Source of the DNA: Actinomycetota bacterium
Lineage (GTDB): Bacteria; Actinomycetota; Actinomycetes; Nanopelagicales; Nanopelagicaceae
DNA length: 64,000 nt
Assembly: GCA_026392825.1 (NCBI GenBank)
Contig: JAPLBF010000006.1
Span: forward strand, 41-64,040
Direction: 5' to 3'
Part shown: piece by piece, positions 32,785 to 57,093 of the stretch
Position numbering within the stretch: the first letter of the stretch is position 1
How the letters are laid out: every line of letters starts with the position of its first letter
Notes under the pieces: generated by a model
Seen by the model: the letters and a program-made list of their open reading frames with translations, nothing else
The model's database searches: none
What the model was told of the DNA's origin: nothing
Program-made: the position numbers and the translations under genes

Positions 32785-34059
32785 ATGAAAGCCACCGACC
32801 GCCAATTTGCACTAGATCTAGATGCTCGCGATCCTTTGGCCCGTTTCCGCTCTAAATTTGTTATCAGCGATCCCAATATTTGCTATCTAGATGGAAATTC
32901 TTTAGGACGACTCCCCCTTTCTACAATCGAGGCTGTTAATTCATTTATGAAAGATGAGTGGGGCCCCGAGGTAGTAACCGGATGGGGGCACTGGGTAGAT
33001 GAGGCGCAACCAACCGGGGATTTAATTGGACGCGCCACTCTTGGCGCTGCGGCGGGCCAAGTTTTGGCGTGCGACACAACATCAGTAAATTTTTATCAAT
33101 TAGCGCTAGCAGCTATTAGCGCACGCCCTGGGCGCAAGACGATAATCACGGATGCGGCCAATTTTCCAACAGATCGTTACATCTTGGACGGAATTGCAAA
33201 ACAGTTAGGTCTAAAGCTAGTAATAATCGATAACGAATCTCCCGGCTCAGCAGAACATGAGCGAATAACACCTGAAATCCTTGCGCCTTACTTAACTGAA
33301 GATGTCGCGCTAGTTACCTTGGAAGTTATTCAATATCGATCTGGTGCTCGCAACGACATTAAATCTCTCACTGACTTGGTTCGCAAACACGGCGCCTTTA
33401 TGTTGTGGGATGCCAGCCACGCGGTCGGCGCTATCGAAATGGACTTCGATAAAAATGGTGTTGATATAGCAGTGGGATGCACATATAAATATGGAAATTC
33501 TGGCCCTGGCGCACCCGCTTGGCTCTATGTGAATAAAAAAGTACAGGCCGAGTTGCAGGTTCCAATTCAGGGTTGGTTTTCACAAGGCGATCAATTTGCA
33601 ATGGGTCCGGATTTTGAAAGAGCAGAAGGTATTCGTGGTTTTCAAATTGCTAGCCCTTCATTAATCGGATTGCGTTGCATTAAGAGCGCATTTTCAATGA
33701 TTGAAGAGGCGGGAATTGGTGCGATATCTGAAAAGGCAGCGATTGGAACTGAAATGATGATTCAGTTATACGATGCTTGGCTCGCAGAACTTGGATTCAC
33801 TTTGTTAACATCACGAAATCCCCAAGAGCGCGGCGGTCATATTTCTCTAGGCCATCCTGATGCGGCACGCATCTGCGTTGCGCTACGAGAATATGCCGAC
33901 GTTATTCCAGATTATCGAACACCAAATTCAATAAGACTAGCGATTGCACCGCTTCCTACTTCTTATGTTGAAGTTTGGGATGGTTTTGCGCGCATCCGCG
34001 ACCTTGTTACTTCTCGGCAATACGAGAAGATTGAGAAAACAGATTCGAGGGTCACATGA
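32785..34059 (+). CDS. kynU: Kynureninase
   Basis: YLDGNSLG, NFPTDRY, WDASHAVG, GCTYKYGNSGPG. Confidence 0.93.
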   Translation: MKATDRQFALDLDARDPLARFRSKFVISDPNICYLDGNSLGRLPLSTIEAVNSFMKDEWGPEVVTGWGHWVDEAQPTGDLIGRATLGAAAGQVLACDTTSVNFYQLALAAISARPGRKTIITDAANFPTDRYILDGIAKQLGLKLVIIDNESPGSAEHERITPEILAPYLTEDVALVTLEVIQYRSGARNDIKSLTDLVRKHGAFMLWDASHAVGAIEMDFDKNGVDIAVGCTYKYGNSGPGAPAWLYVNKKVQAELQVPIQGWFSQGDQFAMGPDFERAEGIRGFQIASPSLIGLRCIKSAFSMIEEAGIGAISEKAAIGTEMMIQLYDAWLAELGFTLLTSRNPQERGGHISLGHPDAARICVALREYADVIPDYRTPNSIRLAIAPLPTSYVEVWDGFARIRDLVTSRQYEKIEKTDSRVT

Positions 34060-34853
34060 GCGAAAACGATTTTGATTCCGCACTTACTTACACCTCTTAT
34101 TTGGCAATAGATAAGTTACTTGAATTACAGAACCCTTTATCCGATGGCCCAGAACACGATGAAATGCTCTTTATTATCATCCACCAGAGTTACGAACTCT
34201 GGTTTAAACAATTAATCCACGAATTTAACGAAGCAGGTAAGGCTCTTGAATCGGGCGACACCCACAGATCGCTGGCCATTCTCGGACGGATTCGCACAAT
34301 ACTTAAAGTTTGTGTGACCCAGGTAGATATTTTAGAGACGATGACTCCATTGCAATTTAACGCTTTCCGCGGGTATCTCTCCTCTTCAAGTGGTTTCCAA
34401 TCCGCCCAATTTAGAAAGGTTGAAGCGCTGCTGGGACGCAGAGATTCAAAGATGGCCGCGCATCTTCCTTTAGATGTTCAGGCAGAAATTAATGAGATCG
34501 CCTCACGTAATTCGATCTGGGATTCAACACTGGCTTATCTTTCAAAGCGTGGCCATAAGATCCCCGTTGAAATTTTAAATCGTGACAAATCAACTCATTA
34601 CCAATCAGATCCAAGGGTTATAGAAGCTTTACTAGAAGTTCATCGCAGCGATCCTGAGTCAGCAATGGTCTGTGAAAGGCTGATGGATATCGATGAAGGT
34701 TTGCAAGAGTGGCGCTACCGTCATGTAAAAATGGTGGAGCGCACGATCGGGCAGAAAACTGGCACTGGTGGTTCTGATGGAGTTAAGTACTTAGCGAGTA
34801 CTTTATTTAATCCAGTTTTTAAAGATCTTTGGGATATCCGTTCGCAGTTTTAG
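34056..34853 (+). CDS. kynA: Tryptophan 2,3-dioxygenase
   Basis: HDEMLFIIIHQSYELWFK, FRGYL..SSGFQS.QFR, WRYRH..MVERTIG.KTGTGGS. Confidence 0.96.
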   Translation: MSENDFDSALTYTSYLAIDKLLELQNPLSDGPEHDEMLFIIIHQSYELWFKQLIHEFNEAGKALESGDTHRSLAILGRIRTILKVCVTQVDILETMTPLQFNAFRGYLSSSSGFQSAQFRKVEALLGRRDSKMAAHLPLDVQAEINEIASRNSIWDSTLAYLSKRGHKIPVEILNRDKSTHYQSDPRVIEALLEVHRSDPESAMVCERLMDIDEGLQEWRYRHVKMVERTIGQKTGTGGSDGVKYLASTLFNPVFKDLWDIRSQF

Positions 34854-35376: not shown

Positions 35377-36771
35377 ATGATTACACAATCGCATCACGCG
35401 GAAACTTTTAGATCAGTACCAGTAACATCCACGCCGATATCGCCTGAGAAAGTAGCCTCTTTACTGGCCTCAGAATGGCAACTATTTACTAAGAACACCA
35501 AGGGTTCAGCCACTGAGAGCGCGCGCTCAATGAAGTCGCTCCCCCTCGGCGTTACCTCAAGCTTCCAGCACTGGGATCCATATCCAATCTCAATCGTCTC
35601 CGCTAAAGGCGCGTGGATGACAGATGTGGATGGCCGCGAACTGCTCGACCTTTCCATGGGCTTCGGCGCAATGCTCGCCGGACACTTAAACCCAGTTGTT
35701 GTAGCAGAAGCCAAAGCAGCCCTTGATACCGGAATGCTCTTTGTAACCCCATCTCCTATTTCAACTGATGCCGCAGAACGAATCTGCCGTCGCTTCGGAA
35801 TTGACCAAGTTCGATTTACAAATTCAGGTACTGAATCAACTATGTACACTGTGCGAACTGCACGATCTGCGAGTGGTAAGAACGACATTGTTAAAATTGA
35901 AGGTGGTTATCACGGTAGCTACGATCCTTTCGTTGTATCGGCAAAACCTAAAGTTGAATATGCCGGTGATGCAGATTTCCCAACTCCAGTGGCAGATTCA
36001 AACCTGGTAGCGGGAAATGTTTTTGTGGTTCCTTATAACAATGCAGATTCTTTAGAAGCAATTTTCGAAAAGCATTCTTCAACAATTGCTTGCTTCATTG
36101 TTGAGCCTGTTCTTGAAAATATTGGAATCGTTCTTCCTGATGCAGGCTATCTAGAACGCGTTCGCGAACTATGCGATCAATACGGAATCATTTTAATATT
36201 TGATGAAGTAAAAACTGGCCTTACTGCTGGACATCAAGGTGCGGCACAAAGACTTGGCGTGCAACCAGATTTAATCACTCTTGCTAAATCAATCGGTGGT
36301 GGACTTACACTTGCTGCATTCGGTGGCAAGCAGAAGTACATGGATTATGTAAGTAACGGAAAAATGGCCCACTTCGGTACATTTAACGGAAATCCACTAG
36401 CAATGGCCGGTATTCGTGCAGTAGATAAAATCTGTACCGCAGAAACTTTAGCTGCTGCAGAAGCGCTAAACCAACAAGCGCTAGAGCGAATCTCTGCAAT
36501 CATTGATGAATACCAACTTCCAGCGCACACTGTTGGATTTGGCGTTAAGGGCTGTATTACTTGGTCAACTCAACCGGTTCGCAACTATCGTGATTACAAA
36601 GCAACTGATTTTGCAGTAGCTGAACTCTCTTGGCTCTGGTCACTAAACCGCGGCATTATTACGCCTCCCGGCTTAGATGAGCAGTGGTTAATCAGTTTGG
36701 CTCACGGACAGAGAGAAATCGACATTCTTGTCGAAGACTTCCGTTCACTTGCTGCAGCGCTGCGTAGTTAA
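35377..36771 (+). CDS. Class III PLP aminotransferase, GSA-aminomutase-like but probably not HemL
   Basis: RFTNSGTESTM, EGGYHG, LIFDEVKTG, PDLITLAKSIGGG, GTFNGNP; start ATG 35377 or TTG 35359 uncertain. Confidence 0.85.
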   Translation: MITQSHHAETFRSVPVTSTPISPEKVASLLASEWQLFTKNTKGSATESARSMKSLPLGVTSSFQHWDPYPISIVSAKGAWMTDVDGRELLDLSMGFGAMLAGHLNPVVVAEAKAALDTGMLFVTPSPISTDAAERICRRFGIDQVRFTNSGTESTMYTVRTARSASGKNDIVKIEGGYHGSYDPFVVSAKPKVEYAGDADFPTPVADSNLVAGNVFVVPYNNADSLEAIFEKHSSTIACFIVEPVLENIGIVLPDAGYLERVRELCDQYGIILIFDEVKTGLTAGHQGAAQRLGVQPDLITLAKSIGGGLTLAAFGGKQKYMDYVSNGKMAHFGTFNGNPLAMAGIRAVDKICTAETLAAAEALNQQALERISAIIDEYQLPAHTVGFGVKGCITWSTQPVRNYRDYKATDFAVAELSWLWSLNRGIITPPGLDEQWLISLAHGQREIDILVEDFRSLAAALRS

Positions 36772-37403
36772 TCAATAGCAACAACGAAATCGGCGCGGTT
36801 ACGTCCGCGTTCGATTAACTTTGCATTTACTTCATCGGTTCCCTTAGCCCACGCTTTTGCCGCCTCCGGATCTTTTCCGTAAGCAATATGGCGCGAAATC
36901 AGCCTAGAAATTCGTTTGTCATCATCTACGTCAACCATCCAACTTTCATCAAGTAAATCATTGCAAACTTCCCAGCCGCCATCATCGTGCAATAAATAAT
37001 TGCCTTCAATAATTACTACTTTCGTGGCAGAAGTAACGACTCCCTGGGCAGCTATAGATTCTTCGATTGCACGATCAAATATTGGATAGTAAATATTCTG
37101 GGTCTGTTCCGTTCGAATGCGTTTGACGAGTGAAATGAATCCTGCGACATCAAAAGTGTCGGGCGCACCTTTGCGATCAGCACGCTTTAAATCCTTCAAA
37201 ACTTTATTACTCAGATGGTAGCCATCCATTGGAACTACCGTTACGAACTCTTTCGGAAGTTTTGCCATTAAGAATTTAGATAGCGTGGACTTGCCCGCAC
37301 CGGGCTTACCGATAATTCCAATCAAGACGCGCTCAGAGGAATTCTCAAGGTGGTTCTGAATTCGGGCAAGTGCAGCCTCTTGGCTAGCTAACTGTTCGGG
37401 CAT
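36768..37403 (-). CDS. P-loop kinase of the FrcK/YggC (pantothenate/uridine kinase-like) family
   Basis: GIIGKPGAGKST, VPMDGYHL, KGAPDTFD, EGNYLL. Confidence 0.85.
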   Translation of the reverse strand: MPEQLASQEAALARIQNHLENSSERVLIGIIGKPGAGKSTLSKFLMAKLPKEFVTVVPMDGYHLSNKVLKDLKRADRKGAPDTFDVAGFISLVKRIRTEQTQNIYYPIFDRAIEESIAAQGVVTSATKVVIIEGNYLLHDDGGWEVCNDLLDESWMVDVDDDKRISRLISRHIAYGKDPEAAKAWAKGTDEVNAKLIERGRNRADFVVAID

Positions 37404-37454
37404 TTTTCAAGTTTAGCGCTTGTGCGAAGGCGATTACTAGGGGATTATAAATTC

Positions 37455-37844
37455 ATGATTAAAAATGGAATTATAAACGGTGACCTTGCATCCCTATTGG
37501 CGAGGTTTCGCCACGTGAATACGATCGCAATTGTCGATGGGCCTTTTCCAACTTATCCCAATGTAGAAACTATTGATTTGGCACTTGTGATGGGAACTCC
37601 AACAGTTGGCCAAGTGCTCGATGCTATTTTGCCGCACCTTGATTTAACTGGAATGTATCTAGCCGCCGAATTTGAAGCAAAAGTTGATGCCAAAACAGTT
37701 GCTGAGTACAAGAAGCATCACGGCGGGCTAAACACCACGGTAATTCCGCATGAGGATTTCAAAGTAAAAGTGGGACAGACTCTTGGGATTATTCATACCG
37801 GCGATGCTGTTCCGTACAGCAGCGTTATTTTACGATCAGGCTGA
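37455..37844 (+). CDS. rbsD: RbsD/FucU-family pyranase/mutarotase
   Basis: Start ATG 37455; GIIN..L..LLA.FRH.NTIAIVDGPFP, IDLAL..GTP, IHTGD..PYSSVIL.SG. Confidence 0.75.
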   Translation: MIKNGIINGDLASLLARFRHVNTIAIVDGPFPTYPNVETIDLALVMGTPTVGQVLDAILPHLDLTGMYLAAEFEAKVDAKTVAEYKKHHGGLNTTVIPHEDFKVKVGQTLGIIHTGDAVPYSSVILRSG

Positions 37845-38745
37845 AATCAATCTCTTCAATTTTTGGATAAGAAGATTGCGCGCCTTTACGCGTAACGCTC
37901 TTAGTGGCACAATCAATCCCAAATTGAACTGCGCTTTCTTCATTCGCACCTGCCGCGATCGCTGCAGCAAATGCGCCAATGAAGCAATCTCCGGCACCAG
38001 TTGTGTCGGTTGCGCTTACTTTTTTAGCGCTAAATCTTTTAACTTTTCCGTCAGAAGTAACTAAAGCAGCGCCTTCACTTCCTAAGGTCACGATCGTGCG
38101 ACCTTTATCGCGTAGTGAGGCGATGATCTCATCTGTATCTGGTGCGCGGTGAGCTTTATCTAATTCCGCAAATTCAATTTCGTTGGGAATCAACCAATCA
38201 GTTAATTCCAATAAATCATCGGTAAGCGGTTGGTATGGCGCGGGATTTAAAATTGTCGTTATACCTAGCTCTTGTGCAGTGCGGAAAGCGGCGAGAGTAA
38301 CTTCCTGTGGGATTTCGCATTGCGCGATTAAAACGCTGACGTTCTTTAATTTGCTCACTTCATCAATTGCATCCTGCGGTGTTAATTTAAAATTTGCTCC
38401 AGGGACAATTGAAATTCGATTCTGTCCTTGACCATCGACCCAGATATGCGCAACACCCGTATGTGTATCTAGGCGCAAGACTGAGGACGTATCCATCTGA
38501 CTATTCTTAAAATTTTGCAAACTTTCATCGCCGAAACCATCGTTTCCAATGCCGGTAATCATTGTTACAGTCGCACCAGTTCGAGCAGCCATAACCGCTT
38601 GATTGGCGCCTTTTCCACCAAATCCCGTTGTAAAACTCTCACCAAATCTGGTTTCTCCCGCAGCCGGCAAAATATCGGCATACACAGTTAAATCCATCAT
38701 TGTGCTACCGATAACGGCAATCTTTGTATCTGCAAAACTTTTCAT
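37825..38745 (-). CDS. rbsK: Ribokinase (PfkB family)
   Basis: GGKGANQAV.AAR, ILNPAP, LIPNEIE, DTTGAGDCF. Confidence 0.9.
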   Translation of the reverse strand: MKSFADTKIAVIGSTMMDLTVYADILPAAGETRFGESFTTGFGGKGANQAVMAARTGATVTMITGIGNDGFGDESLQNFKNSQMDTSSVLRLDTHTGVAHIWVDGQGQNRISIVPGANFKLTPQDAIDEVSKLKNVSVLIAQCEIPQEVTLAAFRTAQELGITTILNPAPYQPLTDDLLELTDWLIPNEIEFAELDKAHRAPDTDEIIASLRDKGRTIVTLGSEGAALVTSDGKVKRFSAKKVSATDTTGAGDCFIGAFAAAIAAGANEESAVQFGIDCATKSVTRKGAQSSYPKIEEIDFSLIVK

Positions 38746-38747
38746 AA

Positions 38748-39884
38748 TTAGAGCGCGATCTCTGAATGAGTCTCGTGAGATTTCATAGCGGCAGCAAATG
38801 CTTTATGCGAATTAATGACTTCCTCAACAGATGCGCAAGCAAACCGATCGCCCAGTTTGCCTTCTCTTTCGGCGAAGTACGCCGCCCACATTTGCAGAAG
38901 TGCATCTGGGAAACCAAATTCAAAGATATGTCCGGTAATGACTGGCCAATTTGTAACGTGGCCCGGCTGTATTTCAGACCAAATTTGCTCGCCATTTCTC
39001 AAAGCGAATGTATGGTAAACCGCAGGGTTCTTGGTGCTAAAGCGAACACCGCCATCCATTCCTAAAGCACTAAAGAAAAATGTATTGCTCTCTCCCGGTG
39101 CAATTCGCTTCATCTCCCAGAACATCGGAAATTCACGATCATTTCCAGGATTATTAGCGCGCATCGCAAGAATGGCGTTATCGAAAGTATCGCAGGCAAC
39201 TTGTTCCCCGCTCGCGCTTTCACGGTGTGTGACTATGTCATCTAAAATTGCAAATACTTTTGTGGGCTTATATCCCAAGCGCAATGGAATGTGAGCCGCA
39301 TGCATTCCGAGATCACCAAGGACGCCGATATCACCACAGAACTTACGTTGACGTTTCCAGTTGATTTTCTTTTTGCGATCTATATCTGATGAGTGCAAGA
39401 GACCAGATCGGACTTCGACAATTTCTCCAAGATTTCCCGATTGAACTTCTCGGACCGCAGCTTGTGCTCCAGGATAGAAAGGAAGTTCGCTAGAAACTCG
39501 CACAAAATTCGATTTACCCACAAGAGCGGCGGCAATCTTTTCGGCGGCATTTAGATCTATTCCAAAAGGCTTTTCGCCTAAGAAATCTTTACCGGAATTA
39601 ATAGTTGCGATATAAATCTCTTCGTGAAGATTGTGTGGCACCGCTATATAAACAACATCAACGTTTGAACTAGCCAATAATTCTTTGTAATCGCTATATG
39701 ACTCAGGTACACCGGCGTTAGTGAAGAATTCTCTAACCGAATCTGATGTATCGGCAATTGCGGTGATAACTGGACGAATCGGATGGTCTAAAAGTGCATC
39801 CCAACGCCCAACCAGTGCCAGTAACTCGCGGCCCATCAGGCCGCCGCCGATGATGCCGACTTTTACAACTTTTTGCTTTGACAT
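38748..39884 (-). CDS. Gfo/Idh/MocA-family NAD(P) oxidoreductase
   Basis: Start ATG 39884, 1 nt after aldolase stop; GIIGGGLMG, IAVPHNLH, GEKPFG, GDLGMH. Confidence 0.9.
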   Translation of the reverse strand: MSKQKVVKVGIIGGGLMGRELLALVGRWDALLDHPIRPVITAIADTSDSVREFFTNAGVPESYSDYKELLASSNVDVVYIAVPHNLHEEIYIATINSGKDFLGEKPFGIDLNAAEKIAAALVGKSNFVRVSSELPFYPGAQAAVREVQSGNLGEIVEVRSGLLHSSDIDRKKKINWKRQRKFCGDIGVLGDLGMHAAHIPLRLGYKPTKVFAILDDIVTHRESASGEQVACDTFDNAILAMRANNPGNDREFPMFWEMKRIAPGESNTFFFSALGMDGGVRFSTKNPAVYHTFALRNGEQIWSEIQPGHVTNWPVITGHIFEFGFPDALLQMWAAYFAEREGKLGDRFACASVEEVINSHKAFAAAMKSHETHSEIAL

Positions 39885-39885
39885 T

Positions 39886-40716
39886 TCAAGCGTTAACAAT
39901 CTTTAGCGCATCGGCAGCAGAAGTTCCTTTATGCAACATTGCCATAAGCGCTTGCGTCATCTTTGCTGGCTTTGGATGAGCAATGATGTTTCGACCATAA
40001 ACAATTCCGGCTGCACCTTGTTTCAATACTTCTGCGGTTCGGTTTAACAATTCTTCGTCCGAAACACGGCCGCCACCACGAACCAAAACTGGAACTGAAC
40101 CAGCAGTCTGAATCACGTGATGATAATCAGCTGCGATATCAGTCGGATCTGCCTTGATTACATCTGCACCAAGTTCAATTGCTTGGCGAACCAATGGCAC
40201 TACTTTTTCAAGTTCACCATCTGAGGTGTAGCCACCGGTTGATGCATCCTTCATAACAAGTGGTTCAACCATTAGCGGCATCCCGTAATGTTCACACTGT
40301 GCCTTAAGGGTCATGATGTTGCGTATGCAAGCATCGCGAAGTTCAGGGCGACCAGGCAGATCGAGCAGGTTTACGACAACGATCGCTGCATCAAGACGGA
40401 CCGCCTGCAGGACTGGCTCTTCGAGCAAAATACTAAATAGGTGATCCGGAATTACTTTTCCATAAACATTTGCGACATCAGTGCGCATTACGAGTGCCGG
40501 TTTATTTGGATTTGGATTGTTCTGCAACAACTTAGCTTGCCCGACGGTTAACTGAATCGCATCTGGGGCTGCTGTGATTAGCGTGTTAACTGCCGCCTGC
40601 ATATCTTCAATTCCTGCAAGGAATGTTCCCTCGCCAAAGAAGCCGTGATCTACTGCAATATCGAAGCAGCGACCGTTATTGAATAAGCGCTTTAGGCGAA
40701 TTGATACGTCAGACAT
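39886..40716 (-). CDS. Class I (DhnA/FbaB/LsrF-type) aldolase
   Basis: IAVDHG, PLMVEP, ELGADVIKAD (Schiff-base Lys), VLVRGGG, GIVYGRNI. Confidence 0.87.
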   Translation of the reverse strand: MSDVSIRLKRLFNNGRCFDIAVDHGFFGEGTFLAGIEDMQAAVNTLITAAPDAIQLTVGQAKLLQNNPNPNKPALVMRTDVANVYGKVIPDHLFSILLEEPVLQAVRLDAAIVVVNLLDLPGRPELRDACIRNIMTLKAQCEHYGMPLMVEPLVMKDASTGGYTSDGELEKVVPLVRQAIELGADVIKADPTDIAADYHHVIQTAGSVPVLVRGGGRVSDEELLNRTAEVLKQGAAGIVYGRNIIAHPKPAKMTQALMAMLHKGTSAADALKIVNA

Positions 40717-40760
40717 TTAAGTAACTCCATTTTCACTGGTCAATTTGTTAACCCTACAAG

Positions 40761-40767
40761 TAGTCTA
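40761..40767. promoter_or_regulatory. Overlapping bidirectional -10 element (aldolase operon / cupin operon)
   Basis: TAGTCTA reads TAGTCT on + (6 nt to ATG 40773) and TAGACT on -. Confidence 0.55.
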
Positions 40768-40772
40768 GAACC

Positions 40773-41807
40773 ATGTCACAGAGTTCAACTACCCCCGCCA
40801 AACTTCCATCTAATCAATTTGATCACTTTTATCGCGGCGGAAATCGCATTGGTGCGCTGCGACATGGTCCGGGCGGTCCGATGCGCCCCGAAGAGTGGAT
40901 TGGTTCGATTACCACTCGCTTTGGCGAAGCCGAACAAGGTCTTTCACATTTGGCTGACGGAACTCTTTTACGCGAAGCGATTAAGGCTGATCCAGATGGC
41001 TGGCTTGGCGCAGACCACGTAAAGAATTTCGGTTTATCTACTGAGATATTAGTTAAGTTACTTGATCCTGATCAACGACTTCCTGTTCATTATCATCCAA
41101 ATAAAGCGTTTGCGAAAACACATTTAGGTTTGGATCACGGAAAAACTGAAGCCTGGATTATTTTAGAAGCACCCGCTGGCTCTGGAGTCGGTTTGGGGTT
41201 TGCTGCTAAGCAGAATAAAGAGGATCTTCTCAAATTAGTCCGTGCCCAAGATTCTGCAGCACTACTTGCATCTTTGCGCCGCACTGAGGTCAAGGTTGGC
41301 GATGCTGTACTCGTTCCGGCCGGTGTTGCACATGCAATTGATGCCGGAATTTTTGTACTCGAATTGCAAGAGCCAACAGATCTATCAGCGCTTTTAGAGT
41401 GGGAAGGTTTTGCCGTCGATGGAATTAAAGACGGTCACCTCGGTCTCGGTTTTGAAACTGTTACTGATGCTTTAAAGCTTGACCCGCTAACGGATGCAGA
41501 ATTTGACTCGCTAATAACTCACACCGCTTTTTCTGGTGGAAACATGCGAACAGTTCTTCCTCTGAAATCAGATGGTTATTTCCGCGCCCATTTAGCGCCA
41601 GGAAGCGGTGATCTACCTGCAGGTTTTGCCATTATTTTGGTCTTAGACGGAAGCGGAGAAATCACTTTCGCAAATGCGCCAACTATGGCGATTACTAAAG
41701 GTGATGCTGTTGTTATTCCATTCGCAGCTGGTGCATATTCCCTGACTGGAGCAAATGCGATTATCTGCCGACCACCACTTGCGGAGTTGGCGCGAGTCGC
41801 TGAATAA
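40773..41807 (+). CDS. Class I phosphomannose-isomerase-like cupin
   Basis: LVKLLD..QRLPVHYHP, GKTEAW, VPAGVAHAI, LELQEP. Confidence 0.8.
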   Translation: MSQSSTTPAKLPSNQFDHFYRGGNRIGALRHGPGGPMRPEEWIGSITTRFGEAEQGLSHLADGTLLREAIKADPDGWLGADHVKNFGLSTEILVKLLDPDQRLPVHYHPNKAFAKTHLGLDHGKTEAWIILEAPAGSGVGLGFAAKQNKEDLLKLVRAQDSAALLASLRRTEVKVGDAVLVPAGVAHAIDAGIFVLELQEPTDLSALLEWEGFAVDGIKDGHLGLGFETVTDALKLDPLTDAEFDSLITHTAFSGGNMRTVLPLKSDGYFRAHLAPGSGDLPAGFAIILVLDGSGEITFANAPTMAITKGDAVVIPFAAGAYSLTGANAIICRPPLAELARVAE

Positions 41808-41810
41808 ATT

Positions 41811-43124
41811 ATGCAAGAGATTCTAATTGGCGTTGACATTGGTACATCTCGCCTTAAAGCGGTTGCAACGGATCTTGATCTAAAAGTTTTATCTGAGTAC
41901 GCAGAGCCAACGCCTTGGAAACACATAAAGAATTGCAGCGAGATAGATATGTTGCTGCTGGCCAACACAGTGATATCAGTTGCATCTAAAGCAGCGGAAT
42001 TAGCTGGCGGAAAAGTGATTGCTATTGGTTTTACTGGATTTAGTGAAACTGGCGTTTTGATGGACGAAGCAGGTACTCCACTTTCTCCTGGCTTAGCCTG
42101 GCACGATCCCCGTGGAATAACGGAACCAATAATTAAAGAGCTAGGTGACTTTGAATTTCGTGCTCGCGCAGGAGCGCTGCTAAACGAAATTGTTACGATT
42201 TCAAAGGCGCTCTGGTTTAATCAAAATTATCCTGAATCAAAGAGAGCGAAACGCTTTCTTTCAGCACCTGAATGGGTGGCTTACTGCCTCGGTGCCGAAC
42301 CAGTTAATGAACTCTCTTTAGTCAGCCGAACTGGTTTCTTTGATGTGGAAGCGCGCAAACCTTGGGAAGAAGCAATTGCTCTGGTTGGCGGCGGAAAAGA
42401 TTTCTTAGGAAGGTTGGTCGTTGCAGGAGAGCCAATTGGAATTGTAAATAACCAAGCGCCAGAGAATTTACGTGGTGCGGTAATAACGATTGCCGGACAT
42501 GACCATTTCACCGCTGCTTATCACAGTGGTGCGATCAATGAGGGCTCACTCTTTGATTCAATGGGAACCGCTGAAGCGCTATTGCGCACCTTTAAAGCCC
42601 CACTTAAGCGAGAAGCAATTGCAGAATTAGCTGCGGCAAATGTTGGGCTTAGTTGCTCAGTTATTGCCGATCACTACACCTTACTCGGAGCGTTACCAAC
42701 GGGACTGACTTTAGAACGTGCCTGCTCTTTACTTGGCGTAACTTCACTTGATGGGAAAGTTGAACTCGGAACAGCAGCGCTATCAATTGATCCGGCCGCA
42801 AGTGCGATGCGCGTAGTAAATGATTACCACGGTCTTTCAATCACAAATTTAGATGATGCCGTGTCACCCGCTGCTCTCTTTCGCGCAACCGTTGAACACC
42901 TAGTTGAAGATTCGGCCGAAATGATTTCACTGATTGAAAAATTCACTGGAAAAGCGCAGAACGTAGTCATTGCAGGGGGATGGATAAAGAATCCAATTAT
43001 TGCCTTTGCAAAAGAAAAACAATTTGGAAAGTACCGGGTTTCAGATGCGACCGAAGCAGGTGCGACGGGAGCAGCGGAGTTTGCAGGTATTGCTGCAGGT
43101 AAATTTAAGTTAAGGGTTAATTAA
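41811..43124 (+). CDS. FGGY-family carbohydrate kinase (divergent)
   Basis: IGVDIGTSRLKA, AWHDPR, AGHDH, DSMGTAE, AGG, GAA. Confidence 0.85.
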   Translation: MQEILIGVDIGTSRLKAVATDLDLKVLSEYAEPTPWKHIKNCSEIDMLLLANTVISVASKAAELAGGKVIAIGFTGFSETGVLMDEAGTPLSPGLAWHDPRGITEPIIKELGDFEFRARAGALLNEIVTISKALWFNQNYPESKRAKRFLSAPEWVAYCLGAEPVNELSLVSRTGFFDVEARKPWEEAIALVGGGKDFLGRLVVAGEPIGIVNNQAPENLRGAVITIAGHDHFTAAYHSGAINEGSLFDSMGTAEALLRTFKAPLKREAIAELAAANVGLSCSVIADHYTLLGALPTGLTLERACSLLGVTSLDGKVELGTAALSIDPAASAMRVVNDYHGLSITNLDDAVSPAALFRATVEHLVEDSAEMISLIEKFTGKAQNVVIAGGWIKNPIIAFAKEKQFGKYRVSDATEAGATGAAEFAGIAAGKFKLRVN

Positions 43125-43892
43125 TTACTTATATTGTTCTAAAGTCCAGGCGCGCACTCCGCCAGCAACTCCAGCTGCATTTGGAACGATAACAATTTCA
43201 TCGCCCATTCGATCTAAATCTGCCTGACGAATACAACGCGCGTTTCCGCCGCCAATATAAAGGCGGTCCCACATAAACACTGGGCGAAGTTCATCAACCA
43301 TTGCGCGAATTCGGCGCGACCAGAACGCATTACCCAAACGACGACGTTCGTGTTCGCCAATCCAAGTGTCGTAAGTTGTGGCGCGACGAACCGGCGCGTG
43401 TGAAAACTCAATATGTGGTGAGAGTGATCCACCATAAAAAATTGCAAAACCAAGTCCGGTTCCCAGGGTAATTACTACTTCATACCCGGATCCAGAAATG
43501 ATTCCTGCACCATGAACTTCAGCGTCATTTAATACGCGAGTCGGCTTCTCTAATTTTTTTGTGAGAACGCTCTGCATATCAAAACCACTCCACTGCTCTT
43601 GGAGTTCTGGATCAATGCGCGTGCGTGGTCCACTCTTAGTCATGTAATGCGGGGTTGAAATAACTACACCGTGGCGAATCATTCCGGGCATTCCAATAGT
43701 CGCGCGATAAGTCGGCGGAAGTGAATCAGAGATTTCTTTCATCGTATCTATAAATCGCTGTGGTGAAAGTGGATAAGGAGTTTCGATGCGACCCGGCTTT
43801 GAATGCATTGTTCCTGACTCATCGAGGACGCAACTCTTTAGAAAGAGTCCGCCACAATCAACAGAGAGGGTTAAGCGCTCATCGTTTGCCAT
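43125..43892 (-). CDS. ROK-family sugar kinase (no HTH; polyphosphate-glucokinase-like)
   Basis: Start ATG 43892; VDCGG, GMPGMI, VLNDAEVHG, TLGTGLG, YIGGGN. Confidence 0.82.
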   Translation of the reverse strand: MANDERLTLSVDCGGLFLKSCVLDESGTMHSKPGRIETPYPLSPQRFIDTMKEISDSLPPTYRATIGMPGMIRHGVVISTPHYMTKSGPRTRIDPELQEQWSGFDMQSVLTKKLEKPTRVLNDAEVHGAGIISGSGYEVVITLGTGLGFAIFYGGSLSPHIEFSHAPVRRATTYDTWIGEHERRRLGNAFWSRRIRAMVDELRPVFMWDRLYIGGGNARCIRQADLDRMGDEIVIVPNAAGVAGGVRAWTLEQYK

Positions 43893-43945
43893 TGGCCAAT
43901 CTTCCCACAATCACTACTGCAATAGAAATTCAGAGATAAATGGGC

Positions 43946-44608
43946 TTATTTGCCGCGTTGACCATAGATATTTTGATATCTGTCATACAACTTATCAACG
44001 CTTTCCTGATCTATTAATTGCAAGGGTCCGAGTGTCTTTGCAATCCAAGTTGTCTTGGCAACGTCTTCGCACATCACAGCGGATTTGACTGCTGCGGTGG
44101 CATCTTTACCAATAGCAAAAACGCCGTGGTTCTTCATAATTACCGCAGATGATCGGTGTCCCGAAAGTGTTTCAACAACTCCTTTGCCGATTGCATCGTT
44201 GCCAATAAGTGCAAATGGACCTAAAGGAATTTCGCCACCAAATTCATCTGCCATTGCTGTTAGTGCGCAAGGAATAGCGCTGTGAATTGCGCTCCAGGCT
44301 GCTGCGTAATTTGAATGGGTGTGAACGACGCCGCCAACTTCTGGCATTTCTCGGTAGATATATGCGTGTGTAAAGGTATCGCTGGATGGAGAGAGGTCAC
44401 CTTCAATAACCTTTCCATCCAAATCACAAATAATCATTTGGGAAGGTTTCAAGTCTTCGTAACTTACGCCGCTCGGTTTGATCATAAAACTTTTTCCATC
44501 AGCCATGCGTTCAGAAACGTTACCGGCAGTCCAGGCAACAAGACCGTATCGCTGTAGATCGATGTTCAATTTACAAACTTTATTTTGTAAATCCTCTTTA
44601 CTCGCCAT
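43946..44608 (-). CDS. araD: L-ribulose-5-phosphate 4-epimerase
   Basis: LVAWTAGNVS, IKPSGVSY, PSSDT.TH, VHTHS.YA, HGVF. Confidence 0.88.
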   Translation of the reverse strand: MASKEDLQNKVCKLNIDLQRYGLVAWTAGNVSERMADGKSFMIKPSGVSYEDLKPSQMIICDLDGKVIEGDLSPSSDTFTHAYIYREMPEVGGVVHTHSNYAAAWSAIHSAIPCALTAMADEFGGEIPLGPFALIGNDAIGKGVVETLSGHRSSAVIMKNHGVFAIGKDATAAVKSAVMCEDVAKTTWIAKTLGPLQLIDQESVDKLYDRYQNIYGQRGK

Positions 44609-46294
44609 TTATTTCACCGATCCAGTCAGGGCGCGATCTCGTATCGCACGCAGTGAATGCATTGCACCATTGTGGCCGAAACTTTCGTAAAGTTGGTTGT
44701 AGAGCTCATAAAGTTCGTTGTAAACCTGGGCGTTCGCTGGATTTGGTTGGTAGCGCTCTTGCGCAACGCCACCCATTGCAGCGGCAGCGGTTTGTACATT
44801 CTTATAGGCACCCGCAGCAACTGCGGCGTGAATTGCTGAACCCAGCGCTGGACCTTGTGCAGATTTAATAATCGTTATCGGCATATTCAACACATCTGCA
44901 TAAATCTGCATTACAAAACTATTTTTTATTAATCCGCCGGCTGCAATGAACTCTTTCACTGGAACACCGGATTCATTAAAGGTTTGCACAATCTTGCGCG
45001 CACCATAAGCAGTTGATTCAACGATCGCGCGATATATCTCTTCTGGTTTTGTTGAAAGCGTCAGACCCATAATTAAGCCAGAGAGTTGATGATCCACCAG
45101 AGTTGAGCGATTGCCACTCTGCCAATCAAGGGCAACCAAGCCGTGTGCGCCAACTGGTTGTGCACTAGCTAATTCTGATAAATAAGTATGTATATCTAGA
45201 CCTTTGGCTGCTGCGGCATTTGTGTATTCGGCCGGTGCATAGTTATTTGCAAACCAACCGAAAATATCTCCGACTCCGGATTGTCCTGCTTCATAACCAA
45301 GTGAGCCAGCAATAATTCCGCCGTCGACTACTCCACACATTCCTGGCACTTCTGCGAATTTTTCAGAGACCATCACATGACAAGTTGATGTACCCATTAT
45401 CGCAACCATCTGTCCGGGATTAACTGCGTTCGCTGCGGCTGCGGTGACATGAGCATCGACATTGCCAACTGCAACTGCAATTCCTTTTTTGAGTCCGGTC
45501 CATTTGGCAGCTTCAGCCGTTAGCGTTCCCGCAATTGCACCAAGTTGGCCAATCTCGTGTTCAAGTTTTTCGGATATGAAATTTTCAAACTTTGGATTTA
45601 GCGCTGCTAAATATTCTTTACTTGGATATTTACTATCTTGATAAATTCCTTTATATCCCGCAGTGCAAATATTGCGCACATACTTTCCGCAGAGTTGCCA
45701 GATAATCCAATCGGCTGCTTCAACCCATTTATCCATAGCCTCATAAACTTCTGGGGCTTCTTCCAGAACTTGCAAAGCTTTAGCAAACTCCCATTCAGAT
45801 GAGATCTTCCCGCCATAACGCGAAATCCAAGGCTCTTTCCGCGCGTGAGCTGCTTCGTTGATCCGGTCAGCATGTGGTTGTGCGGAATGGTGTTTCCATA
45901 ATTTCACAAAAGCGTGCGGGTTTTTAGAGAATTCAGAAATTTCACATAAAGGTGTGCCATCTGATTTAACAGGCAGAGCAGTGCAGGCAGTGAAATCTGT
46001 TGTAATCCCAATGACATCATCAGGGGATATCCCAGACTCTTTTAAGACGGCTGGCACAGTATTTTTCAAAACATCGACATAGTCTGCCGGCACTTGCAAA
46101 GCCCAATCAGGGGGAAGTTTGGCACCTGAAGTAGGAAGAAATTCTTCTATCACTGCATGCGGATATTCATAGACCGAAGTAGCAATTTCTGCGCCATCTG
46201 AGATTCGCACCAGTAGCGCGCGGCCAGAGAGGGTTCCGTAATCAACGCCAATTACATATTTATTAGCAATGTTTTCTGCAAATGAATCTGGCAC
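44609..46294 (-). CDS. araB: Ribulokinase
   Basis: GVDYGTLSGRA, DFTACT, VKLWKHH.AQ, GTSTCH, YEAGQSGVGD, LDWQSGNRS. Confidence 0.92.
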   Translation of the reverse strand: MPDSFAENIANKYVIGVDYGTLSGRALLVRISDGAEIATSVYEYPHAVIEEFLPTSGAKLPPDWALQVPADYVDVLKNTVPAVLKESGISPDDVIGITTDFTACTALPVKSDGTPLCEISEFSKNPHAFVKLWKHHSAQPHADRINEAAHARKEPWISRYGGKISSEWEFAKALQVLEEAPEVYEAMDKWVEAADWIIWQLCGKYVRNICTAGYKGIYQDSKYPSKEYLAALNPKFENFISEKLEHEIGQLGAIAGTLTAEAAKWTGLKKGIAVAVGNVDAHVTAAAANAVNPGQMVAIMGTSTCHVMVSEKFAEVPGMCGVVDGGIIAGSLGYEAGQSGVGDIFGWFANNYAPAEYTNAAAAKGLDIHTYLSELASAQPVGAHGLVALDWQSGNRSTLVDHQLSGLIMGLTLSTKPEEIYRAIVESTAYGARKIVQTFNESGVPVKEFIAAGGLIKNSFVMQIYADVLNMPITIIKSAQGPALGSAIHAAVAAGAYKNVQTAAAAMGGVAQERYQPNPANAQVYNELYELYNQLYESFGHNGAMHSLRAIRDRALTGSVK

Positions 46295-46370: not shown

Positions 46371-47216
46371 ATGACTGTTGTAACGATCCTTGGTGCTGGC
46401 GGCAAGATGGGTAATCGAATTACCAAACCTCTTCTTGAAACAAAGAAGTACCAGCTTCGCTTTGTCGAAAAGTCTGAAGCCGGACAAGCGCGCATTCGCG
46501 AGGCCGGGTTACAAGTTATGGATTTAGATGATGCGCTTAAAGGTACCGACGTCGTAATTTTCACAACTCCAGATGCGTTAGTACGACAGATTTCAGATGA
46601 AGTGGTTCCAAAGTTAGATCCTGGAACCAAAATTCTATTTTTAGATCCAGCCGCAATTGCCGCCAGCCGAGTAAAAATGCGTGAAGACATTAGTTGTTTT
46701 GTCTGTCACCCAACACACCCGCCAGTATTTAGTTTGCTCGGTGAGACAGATGCAGCTGCGCGCCGAGATTATTGGGGTGGAGGCCTCGCTACTCAAGCGC
46801 TGGTATTTGCAATTGCGTGGGGTACTGAAGAAGAAGCGGACTTAGTCGAAACAATTGCCACCGAAATGTTCGCTCCGATTAGCGCTAGCCACCGTATAAC
46901 TGTGCAGCAAATGGCTTTGCTCGAGCCTGCGCTTAGTGAAACCTTAATTAATGGTTGCGTTGAAGTAATCACACAAGGTCTGCAAAAAGTTATTGACCTC
47001 GGAGTTCCAGAAGCTGCAGCGAAAGATTTCTGCATGGGCCACTTACAGATAAGTATCGCGCTCTTGTTTGAAGAGTTAAATTGGAAGTTATCTGATGGAG
47101 CACTGATGGCGTTAAAGCACGCGCAAGGTTCGCTCTTTCGTGATGATTGGGCAGCAATCTTCGAACCTGAAAATGTTCTTGCCAGCGTTAAGCAAATCAC
47201 CGGTGGGGATAAGTAA
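46371..47216 (+). CDS. apnO: D-apionate oxidoisomerase-family protein (PGDH_C domain)
   Basis: GAGGKMG.R, HPTHPPVF, DYWGG.LA.Q, HRITVQQMALLEPALSET, AAKDF.MGH, DDW..IFEPE match the ApnO family as I recall it; GGAG RBS. Confidence 0.8.
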   Translation: MTVVTILGAGGKMGNRITKPLLETKKYQLRFVEKSEAGQARIREAGLQVMDLDDALKGTDVVIFTTPDALVRQISDEVVPKLDPGTKILFLDPAAIAASRVKMREDISCFVCHPTHPPVFSLLGETDAAARRDYWGGGLATQALVFAIAWGTEEEADLVETIATEMFAPISASHRITVQQMALLEPALSETLINGCVEVITQGLQKVIDLGVPEAAAKDFCMGHLQISIALLFEELNWKLSDGALMALKHAQGSLFRDDWAAIFEPENVLASVKQITGGDK

Positions 47217-47224
47217 CTTTAAAG

Positions 47225-48043
47225 ATGAAACTTGGCGTTTCTAGCTTTACCTTTCCTTGGGCGATTGGCGGCATCGAAGCCGATCACCCGGTGGCGATGG
47301 ATGCCTTTAAGTTACTAGAAAAAGCGCACGAGCTGGGTGCTGATGTTTTGCAAATCGCAGATAACTTGCCGATTGGGCACTTAAGCGATGCAGAACTTAT
47401 GAAGTTAAGAACCACTGCCGACGGCTTTGGGATTGCTTTAGAAGTTGGCACGCGCGGTATCAGACCAGAAAATATTGAGCGCTTCTTGGCAATCGCTCAA
47501 ATTCTTGGATCACCGATATTGCGCGTAGTAATTGATAGCAAAGGACACGAACCCGATATTGCAGAAATCTGTGAATTACTACAACCATTTGCTTCGAAGT
47601 TTAAATCTGTAAACGTTAAATTAGCAATTGAAAATCACGATCGCCTAACTTGTGCAGAATTTAACGAGATCATTGATCGCCTTGGTTCTGATTGGGTAGG
47701 TATCTGTTTAGACACTGTAAATTCGCTAGGTGCAGTGGAAGCTCCAAATACAGTTGTGCCAGCGCTATCGCCTCGCGCAATAAATGTTCATATGAAAGAT
47801 TTTGAAATCGTTCGCACCAACGGCCAAATGGGGTTTACCGTTCAAGGAACGGCGCTAGGTAAGGGACGATTAGATGTTGCTGCAGTAATCGCCGCCGTTG
47901 GAGGTACTTCTCGTGAAATTACTTCAGTAATTGAATTATGGACTCCCCGCCAAAGTAGTTACTCAGCGACAGTTGAATTGGAAGAAAGTTGGGCAAATGA
48001 AAGCGTGGCATTTTTACGTAAGTCGATAGGATTAAAAGTATGA
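47225..48043 (+). CDS. Xylose-isomerase-like TIM barrel (candidate 3-oxo-isoapionate decarboxylase)
   Basis: Metal-site motifs AIENHD, CLDTVNS, NVHMKD, VIELW; directly after apnO. Confidence 0.75.
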   Translation: MKLGVSSFTFPWAIGGIEADHPVAMDAFKLLEKAHELGADVLQIADNLPIGHLSDAELMKLRTTADGFGIALEVGTRGIRPENIERFLAIAQILGSPILRVVIDSKGHEPDIAEICELLQPFASKFKSVNVKLAIENHDRLTCAEFNEIIDRLGSDWVGICLDTVNSLGAVEAPNTVVPALSPRAINVHMKDFEIVRTNGQMGFTVQGTALGKGRLDVAAVIAAVGGTSREITSVIELWTPRQSSYSATVELEESWANESVAFLRKSIGLKV

Positions 48044-48756
48044 AGCTATCCGGATATAACGTCGCCATCACAGGTGGTTCTGGTGGGATTGGATCTGCTT
48101 TAGCCACTGGCTTACTTGAGGATGGCGCAAAAGTATTCAATTTAGATTCTGTAAAACCGGGCGATCAAGCGGCTAATTTCATCTCCGTCGATTTAGTCGA
48201 TGAAAAATCTGTCCAAAAAGCTTTTGAACAGATTGAAAAGCTCGATGCAATAATCGTTTCGGCAGGCGTGCAGTTGGTTGGAAGTGATTCCAAGATCGCC
48301 GATGTAACTTTAGAAACTTGGCAACGCACTATTGATGTAAATATGACTGGCGCTTTTCTCGCTGTTAAATATGCGATGCCACTCTTAATCGATTCTGATC
48401 GTGGCTCAGTTGTACTAATCGGTTCTCCAACTGGAATGACTATGGAAGGCGCTGGCTACACCGCTTATGGCGCATCAAAGGCGGGAATGATGGGCTTATC
48501 TCGCATCATCGCGGTGGATTACAAAGAAGTTGGCGTGCGATCAAATGTCGTTGTACCCGGCACGATGTCTACACCGCTAATTAAAAAGATTTGGGATGAT
48601 CCCGAAAAAGGGCCAGATTTAATTCGGCGAACACCACTTGGGCGGATGGGCGACCCACGTGATTTAGTAGGAATTGTTAACTGGTTGGTTTCTGCCGACT
48701 CTTCATTTGCAACAGGTGCATCGTATGCAGTTGATGGCGGAATGACTGCGCGATGA
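48040..48756 (+). CDS. Classical SDR dehydrogenase
   Basis: TGGSGGIG, YGASK, VVPG; ATGA-coupled on both sides. Confidence 0.92.
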   Translation: MKLSGYNVAITGGSGGIGSALATGLLEDGAKVFNLDSVKPGDQAANFISVDLVDEKSVQKAFEQIEKLDAIIVSAGVQLVGSDSKIADVTLETWQRTIDVNMTGAFLAVKYAMPLLIDSDRGSVVLIGSPTGMTMEGAGYTAYGASKAGMMGLSRIIAVDYKEVGVRSNVVVPGTMSTPLIKKIWDDPEKGPDLIRRTPLGRMGDPRDLVGIVNWLVSADSSFATGASYAVDGGMTAR

Positions 48757-50534: not shown

Positions 50535-50667
50535 GGGCGGTACCTAAATCACGCGTGCGCGGGTAACAGTTCTGTAACGATCTCAAATTCGCCTTAAAAC
50601 CCTTTAAATAGGCGTAGATCCTATGTACTATCGGTTGCGATTGACCCACCTATAGGAGGAAATATAT

Positions 50668-51732: not shown

Positions 51733-51767
51733 TCCCAGCTCTTTAGTGAATAACTAAAGAAGAGTGT

Positions 51768-51805
51768 TTAAAGAGGGCGGCTGCTTCGGCAGTCGCCCTC
51801 TTTAA
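51768..51805 (+). terminator. Strong intercistronic hairpin after the SBP gene
   Basis: TTAAAGAGGGCGGCTGC-TTCG-GCAGTCGCCCTCTTTAA, 17-bp stem with UUCG loop. Confidence 0.85.
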
Positions 51806-51906
51806 CTAAAACGGCAATATGTTATAAGGTTTTAGGCAGTAAGGTTTAGTTACCAAGGAAAAACAATTTAATTGCAATTTAAATTTCGACTTTGAAAGGA
51901 TCTCAA

Positions 51907-56122: not shown

Positions 56123-56156
56123 GTTCAGACCTTACCGCGCAAGTTATGATCAGCCA

Positions 56157-57071: not shown

Positions 57072-57093
57072 GAAAACGAACTAGGAGCAAACA

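Follow-up and report, generated by a model that had tools for sequence, protein, structure and literature searches.

The four genes at positions 38748-43124 of a 64,000-nt stretch of DNA (hereafter the window; contig JAPLBF010000006.1 of assembly GCA_026392825.1) encode a class I aldolase, a Gfo/Idh/MocA oxidoreductase (Gfo), a bicupin with the fold of mannose-6-phosphate isomerase (PMI) and an FGGY-family sugar kinase. The host is an acI (Nanopelagicales) freshwater actinobacterium, Candidatus (Ca.) Planktophila-like, with a streamlined genome. Judging from sequence, we propose with about even confidence that this quartet would be an autonomous isomerase-kinase-aldolase catabolic module, equipped with an accessory dehydrogenase, for a monosaccharide not yet named. 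The quartet is not specific to the apionate-type genes that neighbour it. The logic of isomerase, kinase and aldolase is known, whereas the pathway variant, built from uncharacterised subfamilies, is new. In many lakes the acI Actinobacteria are the commonest bacteria, and what chiefly separates their strains is the choice of carbohydrates; a conserved catabolic module without an assigned substrate leaves a gap in predicting their diet. With the substrate named, the corresponding operons of Micromonospora-type actinomycetes could be annotated as well.

In the proposed pathway, the PMI-fold cupin would first interconvert an aldose and a ketose via a metal-bound enediol, the aldose probably being manno-, lyxo- or talo-configured at C2/C3. 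The FGGY kinase, presumably coupled translationally to the cupin, would then phosphorylate the sugar. The class I aldolase would split the ketose phosphate into dihydroxyacetone phosphate (DHAP) and an aldehyde or glyceraldehyde-3-phosphate, and a second phosphorylation may precede this cleavage. Finally Gfo, which may be coupled to the aldolase, would either prepare the sugar at entry or convert the aldehyde product. We infer the order of the steps, the free or phosphorylated state of the isomerase substrate, the role of Gfo and the nature of the sugar from the families, motifs, gene order and fusions that were observed.

A survey with the cupin-family profile against one genome per species listed at least 80 loci. 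In at least 10 other species-level genomes the quartet recurs in identical order and orientation, with gfo and the aldolase gene transcribed away from the cupin and FGGY genes. These genomes have a G+C content of 60-71% in comparison with 46% in the window, and the proteins are 54-57% (cupin), 65-69% (aldolase), 53-58% (Gfo) and 37-43% (FGGY) identical to those of the window. One arrangement is thus kept over a great distance within wholly different surroundings, which goes beyond chance and argues that the four genes form a functional unit. FGGY orthologs of 36-43% identity follow the cupin in at least 17 other loci, and Gfo and aldolase are co-conserved in 9 other loci, where their genes overlap by 4 nt. 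A PPK2-like gene, named by reading of the sequence, often follows gfo at the other quartet loci. The ribokinase gene rbsK, which lies beside gfo in the window, is missing from all of these at least 10 loci and is not a conserved part of the module.

Outside the complete quartet, the cupin is found with comparable partners. In Micromonosporaceae, Kineosporia and Thermopolyspora it heads self-contained operons. These encode a CUT2 ABC transporter, a PfkB kinase of 1-phosphofructokinase (1-PFK)/LacC type, an FGGY ortholog sharing 36-43% identity and one or two class I aldolases of the LacD family (PRK12858); in Kineosporia a LacI regulator is added. The binding protein of the Phytohabitans cupin operon matches PDB entry 5dkv, which we take to be a D-tagatose complex, at 6.7e-56. 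Loci of Acidimicrobiales and Nanopelagicales combine the cupin with another PfkB kinase and a conserved protein of 329-345 aa that weakly resembles class I aldolases; in Acidimicrobiales the locus also contains LacI, a transporter and, after the cupin, an FrcK-like kinase 39% identical to that of the window. In Halostreptopolyspora the cupin is the first gene in a LacI-controlled ABC transporter operon. The recurring theme is a cupin with one or more sugar kinases and a class I aldolase, often together with a monosaccharide transporter. The fallback suggestion of a first-pass annotation of this DNA, that the quartet serves another rare sugar, fits this evidence.

Families were assigned with Pfam and NCBIfam models, the NCBIfam scores being set against curated cut-offs. 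The cupin carries the Pfam domains Cupin_2 and MPI_cupin, and its match to the manA model TIGR00218 (52.1 bits, cut-off 116.2) covers residues 61-116 only. A Foldseek search with the AlphaFold2 (AF2) model of the cupin, which has a pLDDT (predicted local distance difference test) of 96.3, revealed class I PMIs as all of the top matches, namely 1qwr, 1zx5 and the Salmonella and Candida enzymes, with TM (template modelling) scores of 0.69-0.73; only class I PMIs superposed on the model. The PDB match to 1qwr has an E-value of 6e-14 with the single cupin sequence and of 5.5e-35 with the family profile. In the family alignment, the metal ligands correspond to H106, H108, E126 and H187, and K95, K124 and E197 are retained. 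The six residues studied by mutagenesis in the Salmonella PMI, K86, H99, K132, E134, H255 and E264, are all conserved, as K95, H108, K124, E126, H187 and E197, respectively.

However, two differences from true PMIs were found, at the first metal ligand and at the phosphate site. The first-pass annotation had pointed to a VHYHP motif in place of the QVHP of PMIs, and this motif is indeed present at residues 105-109. His106 replaces Gln as the first metal ligand in at least 90% of the cupin family, giving the classical cupin HxH; 1qwr itself has Lys at this position. In addition, the Arg that in PMIs stands four residues after a conserved Asp (SDNxxR) is Leu207 in the window (D203-L-S-A-L207). 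The family consensus here is PTDLSILLEW, and the residue equivalent to Salmonella R274 is hydrophobic throughout the family. R274 of the Salmonella PMI binds the substrate phosphate; we presume that Leu207 is its counterpart, from the PMI motif and the published list of mutants. The family-specific residues R30 and R102 might replace the lost phosphate-binding Arg. Compared with the Bacillus-type class I PMI (1qwr), the cupin shares the fold (TM 0.71-0.77), the positions of three metal ligands and the catalytic Lys and Glu, but it differs in the first ligand, the phosphate site, the manA score and its genomic partners, which are kinases, aldolases and transporters.

FGGY kinases usually phosphorylate unphosphorylated ketoses or polyols, and the cupin is therefore favoured as a free-sugar isomerase that would feed the kinase. 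The Bacillus-type PMIs (BaM6PI) also isomerise free sugars (PMC4718643). A fusion with a 1-PFK-type kinase nevertheless leaves a sugar-phosphate substrate possible for the cupin family. At E<=1e-30, 318 clusters of this family are present in a library built at 50% identity, and the family members, where named, are called mannose-6-phosphate isomerase or phosphoheptose isomerase. Because the family lacks the phosphate-binding residue of true PMIs, these names may be systematically wrong. In the same library, the cupin is fused to PfkB kinases and to kinases of the ADP-dependent phosphofructokinase/glucokinase (ADP-PFK/GK) type. The 1-PFK-type kinase of the operons shares 49% identity with one of the fused PfkB domains, and searching the PDB with the fusion proteins left the kinase subfamily unsettled. 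A further fusion, P0245 (844 aa), departs from the sugar-kinase theme, as its cupin is joined to an MlrC/M81 metallopeptidase-like region (DUF1485 and MlrC_C).

The remaining three proteins are likewise distant from characterised enzymes. The aldolase matches the TIM-barrel family PF01791 (DeoC/LacD) at 1.2e-30 and reaches none of the cut-offs of characterised members, scoring 118 against 241 for fructose-1,6-bisphosphate (FBP) aldolase IA, 105 against 430 for ADH synthase and 95 against 297 for LsrF. The nearest solved structures, all distant, are MJ0400, LsrF and the archaeal class I FBP aldolase. Lys188 (in ADVIKADP), Asp23 and the GGG and GRN motifs are invariant among 9 orthologs. Lys188 is predicted to be the Schiff-base lysine equivalent to that of MJ0400 and LsrF, and the catalytic roles of all these residues and motifs are presumed from the family. 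A housekeeping class II FBP aldolase is also encoded in the window, and the class I aldolase of the quartet is therefore an extra one. Gfo consists of a Rossmann domain (PF01408, 2.5e-17) and a C-terminal alpha/beta domain (PF22725, 1.7e-6). Its best NCBIfam model is levoglucosan dehydrogenase, with a score of 83 against a cut-off of 650, and no equivalog was reached; the nearest solved structures, both distant, are LgdA (scyllo-inositol/L-glucose dehydrogenase) and levoglucosan dehydrogenase. The FGGY kinase scores highest with XylB (107 against 380), followed at lower scores by FucK, RhaB, GlpK, LsrK, GntK and AraB. Its DIGTS, AGHDH, GTAEA and AGGW motifs are intact, and DIGTS and AGHDH, which represent the phosphate-1 motif and the catalytic Asp, are conserved in 13 orthologs. 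Pfam detected FGGY_N and no FGGY_C, whereas the XylB model spans residues 6-432 and conservation extends to the GGW adenosine motif. Among solved structures, the nearest are the N-domains of glycerol kinases and xylulokinases. With all four proteins below cut-off, the first-pass statement that none is a clear ortholog of a textbook enzyme holds.

The divergent layout of the quartet with rbsK, as first described, was also confirmed, and the coordinates are listed in Table 1. The same annotation had assumed a shared bidirectional promoter. The 56-bp divergent gap is real; the promoter had been deduced from that gap, and a scan of it with the sigma-70 consensus gave no match. By eye, the gap contains a TCTAGA-centred TAGTCT/TAGACT pair, which could represent overlapping actinobacterial -10 boxes, and a GGAG lies 9 nt ahead of the aldolase ATG, while no Shine-Dalgarno sequence was seen ahead of the cupin ATG. 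The intergenic region is kept in Ca. Planktophila lacus-type contigs. A terminator scan and Rfam found nothing in the region. The FGGY gene begins 3 nt after the cupin stop codon, and 2 nt separate gfo from the ribokinase gene, which is probably co-transcribed downstream of it. The longest open reading frame (ORF) of gfo has a TTG start and overlaps the aldolase gene by 14 nt. As relatives and orthologs have 378 aa, the true start is probably 5 codons downstream, leaving a gap of 1-2 nt to the aldolase gene. Fragments of all four quartet genes were found in three metatranscriptomes (freshwater or marine), showing transcription but not its amount or the transcript ends. The closest named relative of the cupin is that of Candidatus Planktophila lacus (90% identity), and near-identical copies number hundreds in lake metagenomes; the DNA runs that contain the window are all metagenomes.

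Table 1. Positions of the quartet and of neighbouring sugar-related features in the window.
Feature	Positions	Strand	Remarks
FrcK-like P-loop kinase (PRK09270 family)	36768-37403	minus	NF006743, 257.8 (cut-off 227)
rbsD	37422-37844	plus	convergent, wedged against rbsK
Ribokinase (rbsK)	37825-38745	minus	TIGR02152, 308.7 (cut-off 299.65, passed)
Gfo/Idh/MocA NAD(P)-dependent sugar oxidoreductase	38748-39899	minus	378-383 aa; Pfam
DhnA/FbaB-type class I (Schiff-base) aldolase	39886-40716	minus	276 aa; DeoC/LacD Pfam
Divergent intergenic region, presumed control region of both operons	40717-40772		56 bp
PMI-fold bicupin, putative metal-dependent aldose-ketose isomerase	40773-41807	plus	344 aa
Divergent FGGY-family sugar kinase	41811-43124	plus	437 aa; FGGY_N Pfam, 8.9e-28
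CUT2-type sugar ABC transporter (binding protein, permease, ATPase)	50668-53741	plus	candidate substrate supplier; family assignment; binding protein at 50668-51732

The proposed chemistry runs along the lines of the fucose, rhamnose and tagatose routes, and the quartet differs from each of the known pathways compared. In L-fucose and L-rhamnose catabolism (FucI/FucK/FucA, RhaA/RhaB/RhaD, FucO), an isomerase is likewise followed by an FGGY kinase and a DHAP-releasing aldolase, with an oxidoreductase for the aldehyde, and the isomerase and kinase genes are adjacent. However, the isomerase of the quartet is a PMI-fold bicupin in place of FucI or RhaA, the aldolase is of class I DhnA type instead of class II, the oxidoreductase belongs to Gfo/Idh/MocA, and the FGGY kinase falls well short of the cut-offs for fuculokinase and rhamnulokinase. 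In Micromonosporaceae and Thermopolyspora, the sister operons resemble the tagatose-6-phosphate pathway and upper glycolysis (LacAB/LacC/LacD; PfkB/FbaB) in having an isomerase, two kinases and a bisphosphate aldolase. In contrast, the window has a DhnA-type aldolase and no 1-PFK-type kinase, only a ribokinase-type PfkB and the FrcK-like kinase being nearby, and its isomerase is unrelated to LacAB. The sulfo-EMP pathway (YihS/YihV/YihT/YihU; PMC9594981) runs through four analogous steps, with an isomerase, a kinase, an FbaB-related class I aldolase and an oxidoreductase, but its isomerases are YihS (PF07221) or SqvD (FucI family) and not cupins. The known sulfoquinovose routes were rejected for the quartet, as their isomerases are YihS or of FucI type and neither a sulfoquinovosidase nor a sulfonate exporter is present in the window (PMC9594981).

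Several observations weigh against an autonomous module. Short gaps are the rule in a streamlined genome, and the tight spacing alone therefore weighs little. In acI no dedicated transporter or regulator accompanies the quartet, what Gfo does is not accounted for, and no sugar can be named. The aldolases are not orthologous across lineages, being of DhnA type in the window and of LacD type elsewhere, which looks like repeated recruitment to one chemical step. In addition, a cupin of 81% identity in a Planktophila relative (L082) pairs only with a divergent FrcK-like kinase 29 bp away, the aldolase, Gfo and FGGY genes being absent, and about 50 Nanopelagicales loci place the cupin in other contexts, among genes read as housekeeping. 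Since the cupin persists without the other three genes, it has some role of its own.

The strongest rival explanation starts from this core role of the cupin apart from the quartet, which is its main argument. It holds that the cupin is the housekeeping mannose-6-phosphate isomerase (ManA) of Nanopelagicales, perhaps working with a hexose kinase in mannose or fructose salvage, and that the aldolase-Gfo pair is an unrelated neighbour, so that the quartet would be only partly a unit. The PMI fold and the six retained Salmonella residue equivalents agree with this explanation, as do the housekeeping contexts and the pairing with the FrcK-like kinase alone. In those contexts, whose gene names are our reading of representative sequences and were not run through Pfam, the cupin is flanked by ppa and dacB at one end and by a zinc protease gene, tilS, hpt, ftsH and folE at the other, or it lies beside a small cupin gene, pabB-like genes and thrS, or beside cell-wall genes. 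No assembly gave two cupin loci among the matches listed, which suggests one copy per genome; an argument built on this copy number is weakened by its reliance on those matches. In a neighbour-joining tree, which carries no support values, the window clade stands next to the clade with the thrS context, and the other quartet clade next to that with the dacB context. Against a housekeeping PMI stand the replacement of the phosphate-binding Arg by Leu and of the ligand Gln by His, the low manA score, the intact quartet in very different lineages, and the presence of the family, in actinomycetes with large genomes, in catabolic operons that also encode transporters, aldolases and additional kinases. 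We therefore regard the housekeeping explanation as rather unlikely. The cupin probably has a core role, to which FGGY, aldolase and Gfo attach as accessory genes.

The gene order around the cupin is consistent with such attachment. An 18-bp gap separates the facing frcK and rbsD genes of the window, whereas in L082 (9336-11035) frcK and the cupin gene form a divergent pair. The rbsD-rbsK-gfo-aldolase block therefore looks inserted between frcK and the cupin gene, and variable blocks of sugar genes seem to insert at the cupin locus. In Nanopelagicus/Planktophila-type loci (L003-L017), the 344-aa cupin is divergent from a single-domain cupin of 113 aa, which by eye resembles the C-terminal cupin of type II PMI/GMP enzymes.

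Next to the quartet, at a distance of 3.2 kb, lies the apionate-type cluster (46371-53741), which contains a PGDH_C protein, an AP_endonuc_2 barrel, an SDR and a 593-aa protein, followed by the CUT2 transporter. The 593-aa protein carries Apionate_lact_N/M (PF25837, PF25838), and some of its homologs are named D-apionolactonase by JGI, but it scores 75 against 750 with the NCBIfam ApnL model. The PGDH_C (ApnO-like) protein matched no apionate model. In the Planktophila clade, synteny extends over 20 kb from the quartet as far as the IolG-like gene, and it is kept down to an ApnL-like identity of 75%. The co-occurrence with apnO/apnL, which the first-pass annotation had named as a check, was found by gene neighbourhood only within this clade, and it counts therefore as one evolutionary observation and not as independent co-occurrence. 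No PGDH_C or ApnL-like gene lies within 10 kb at the at least 10 other quartet loci or at the 7 cupin-FGGY-aldolase operons of other actinomycetes. Moreover, two metagenome contigs from close relatives have a split PGDH_C gene, disrupted through a frameshift in one (L088 2455-3292) and through a duplication or insertion in the other (L089 7464-8461); the surrounding genes are intact, those of the quartet at 93-99% identity. The split genes may be real pseudogenes or assembly errors.

Over 47225-50534, the AP_endonuc_2, SDR and ApnL-like proteins are 83-88%, 88-90% and 75-78% identical, respectively, in close relatives (L085, L087-L089), and 79%, 78% and 63% identical in the P. lacus-type contig. 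They thus diverge far more quickly than the flanking genes, which are 91-99% identical on both sides. This set looks like a hypervariable or recombining cassette within the syntenic region.

The transporter offers a different link between the quartet and this cluster. Its orthologs (binding protein 60-69%, ATPase 71-76%) adjoin the cupin at L008 and L080, where no apn-like genes are found and one locus also has a GMC oxidoreductase. The transporter of the window may therefore feed the cupin pathway. D-apiose catabolism as outlined by Carter et al. 2018 reportedly includes an isomerase/FGGY-kinase route besides oxidative routes; an FGGY kinase is said to belong to the non-oxidative one, and no quartet member falls in the families assigned there. 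The quartet might be a non-oxidative route running parallel to the ApnL-like cluster, which would oxidise the same imported sugar, for example D-apiose or some other wall sugar of plants or algae. The short distance of 133 bp from the ApnL-like gene to the transporter agrees with such a scheme. However, the binding protein matches ribose, allose and apiose binders in the PDB at 1e-15 to 1e-21, which is too weak for naming a ligand, and it is no nearer to the apiose binder 5ibq/4ry0 (about 6e-15) than to ribose binders. By our own reasoning, retro-aldol cleavage of apulose phosphate gives no ordinary products. The at least 10 high-G+C quartet loci, in addition, have neither a nearby transporter of this kind nor apn-like genes. 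We consider a parallel route for the same sugar improbable.

A broader proposal joins several of these threads. The Arg-less PMI-fold isomerase family, core to Nanopelagicales and widespread in Actinobacteria, would seed an undescribed pathway of isomerase, FGGY kinase, class I aldolase and Gfo dehydrogenase, which in acI would act on a plant or algal sugar, possibly the one, such as D-apiose, that the transporter brings in and the ApnL-like cluster oxidises. We put this forward as a speculation that is more probably wrong than right by a wide measure. If true, the most abundant freshwater bacteria would run parallel quartet and ApnL-like routes for one imported sugar.

The first-pass annotation had proposed that the quartet extends the oxidative D-apionate route downstream by a new branch, in which L-erythrulose, the product of an OiaC-like step, is phosphorylated by the FGGY kinase and then either isomerised by the cupin towards erythrose-4-phosphate or cleaved by the aldolase to DHAP and formaldehyde. 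The quartet does adjoin ApnL-like and PGDH_C genes and the transporter, and the ApnL-like protein has both apionate Pfam domains. The annotation had also stated that the published downstream genes are absent from the window, and this statement stands, as tblastn revealed no homologs of Dak, RpiB or triosephosphate isomerase (TIM) and no LerK/LerI/DerI-type genes, and no RuBisCO-like or DUF1537 gene is among the annotated ORFs. Dak-type erythrulose kinases are rare among acI relatives, with few close homologs. Cleavage of erythrulose-1-phosphate has a chemical precedent, since DHAP aldolases interconvert it with DHAP and formaldehyde as a side reaction (PMC10733421). However, the neighbourhood data lend the branch no support: self-contained operons with their own transporter and regulator occur in other actinomycetes, co-localisation of the quartet with apionate genes is confined to one clade, and the ApnO-like gene is interrupted in two relatives that keep the quartet whole. 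The low ApnL score and the lack of an apionate model match for the PGDH_C protein speak in the same direction. The partners elsewhere, a 1-PFK-type kinase and LacD-like bisphosphate aldolases, indicate hexose-type chemistry, and the release of formaldehyde would be an unusual catabolic solution. A downstream apionate branch is therefore very unlikely.

In a relative of Planktophila (L082 16322-21035, also L083 and L084), SDR, Dak1-Dak2 kinase, RpiB, TIM and zinc-dependent alcohol dehydrogenase genes correspond to the genes of the erythritol/threitol (erythrulose) route in mycobacteria. They lie beside a GH127 beta-L-arabinofuranosidase gene and a CUT1 transporter, 6 kb from the cupin gene.

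An Lsr-like system, in which the FGGY kinase (as LsrK), the cupin (in place of LsrG) and the aldolase (as LsrF) phosphorylate, isomerise and thiolytically cleave a diketo signal or damage product, is hardly credible: LsrF is detectable (1e-13 in the PDB; 95 bits with the model), the LsrK model gives 51 bits and the cupin-FGGY-aldolase triad occurs with CUT2 transporters in other actinomycetes, but the LsrF and LsrK scores fall short of 297 and 528 and below those for other family members, no LsrG or LsrG-like ORF is adjacent, and the LacD-like aldolases and 1-PFK-type kinases of the sister operons indicate sugar bisphosphate chemistry.

The remaining genes around the quartet include further sugar functions. 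A minus-strand operon at 43125-46294 encodes a ribulokinase (araB, above cut-off), an araD-type epimerase and a ROK/polyphosphate-glucokinase-like protein. The L-arabinose isomerase gene araA was not found in the window, where no unannotated ORF of fitting size is left. After the transporter, at 53769-58077, follow genes for a GMC flavoprotein oxidoreductase that weakly matches pyranose and cholesterol oxidases, a shikimate-dehydrogenase-like protein, an IolE-like TIM barrel and an IolG-like Gfo protein. These genes may form a set for keto-sugar or inositol-type oxidation, in which no IolD, IolB or IolC was seen. A kynureninase-like gene and a tryptophan 2,3-dioxygenase gene stand side by side at 32785-34853; neither reaches its equivalog cut-off, and this pair is kept in the P. 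lacus-type contig.

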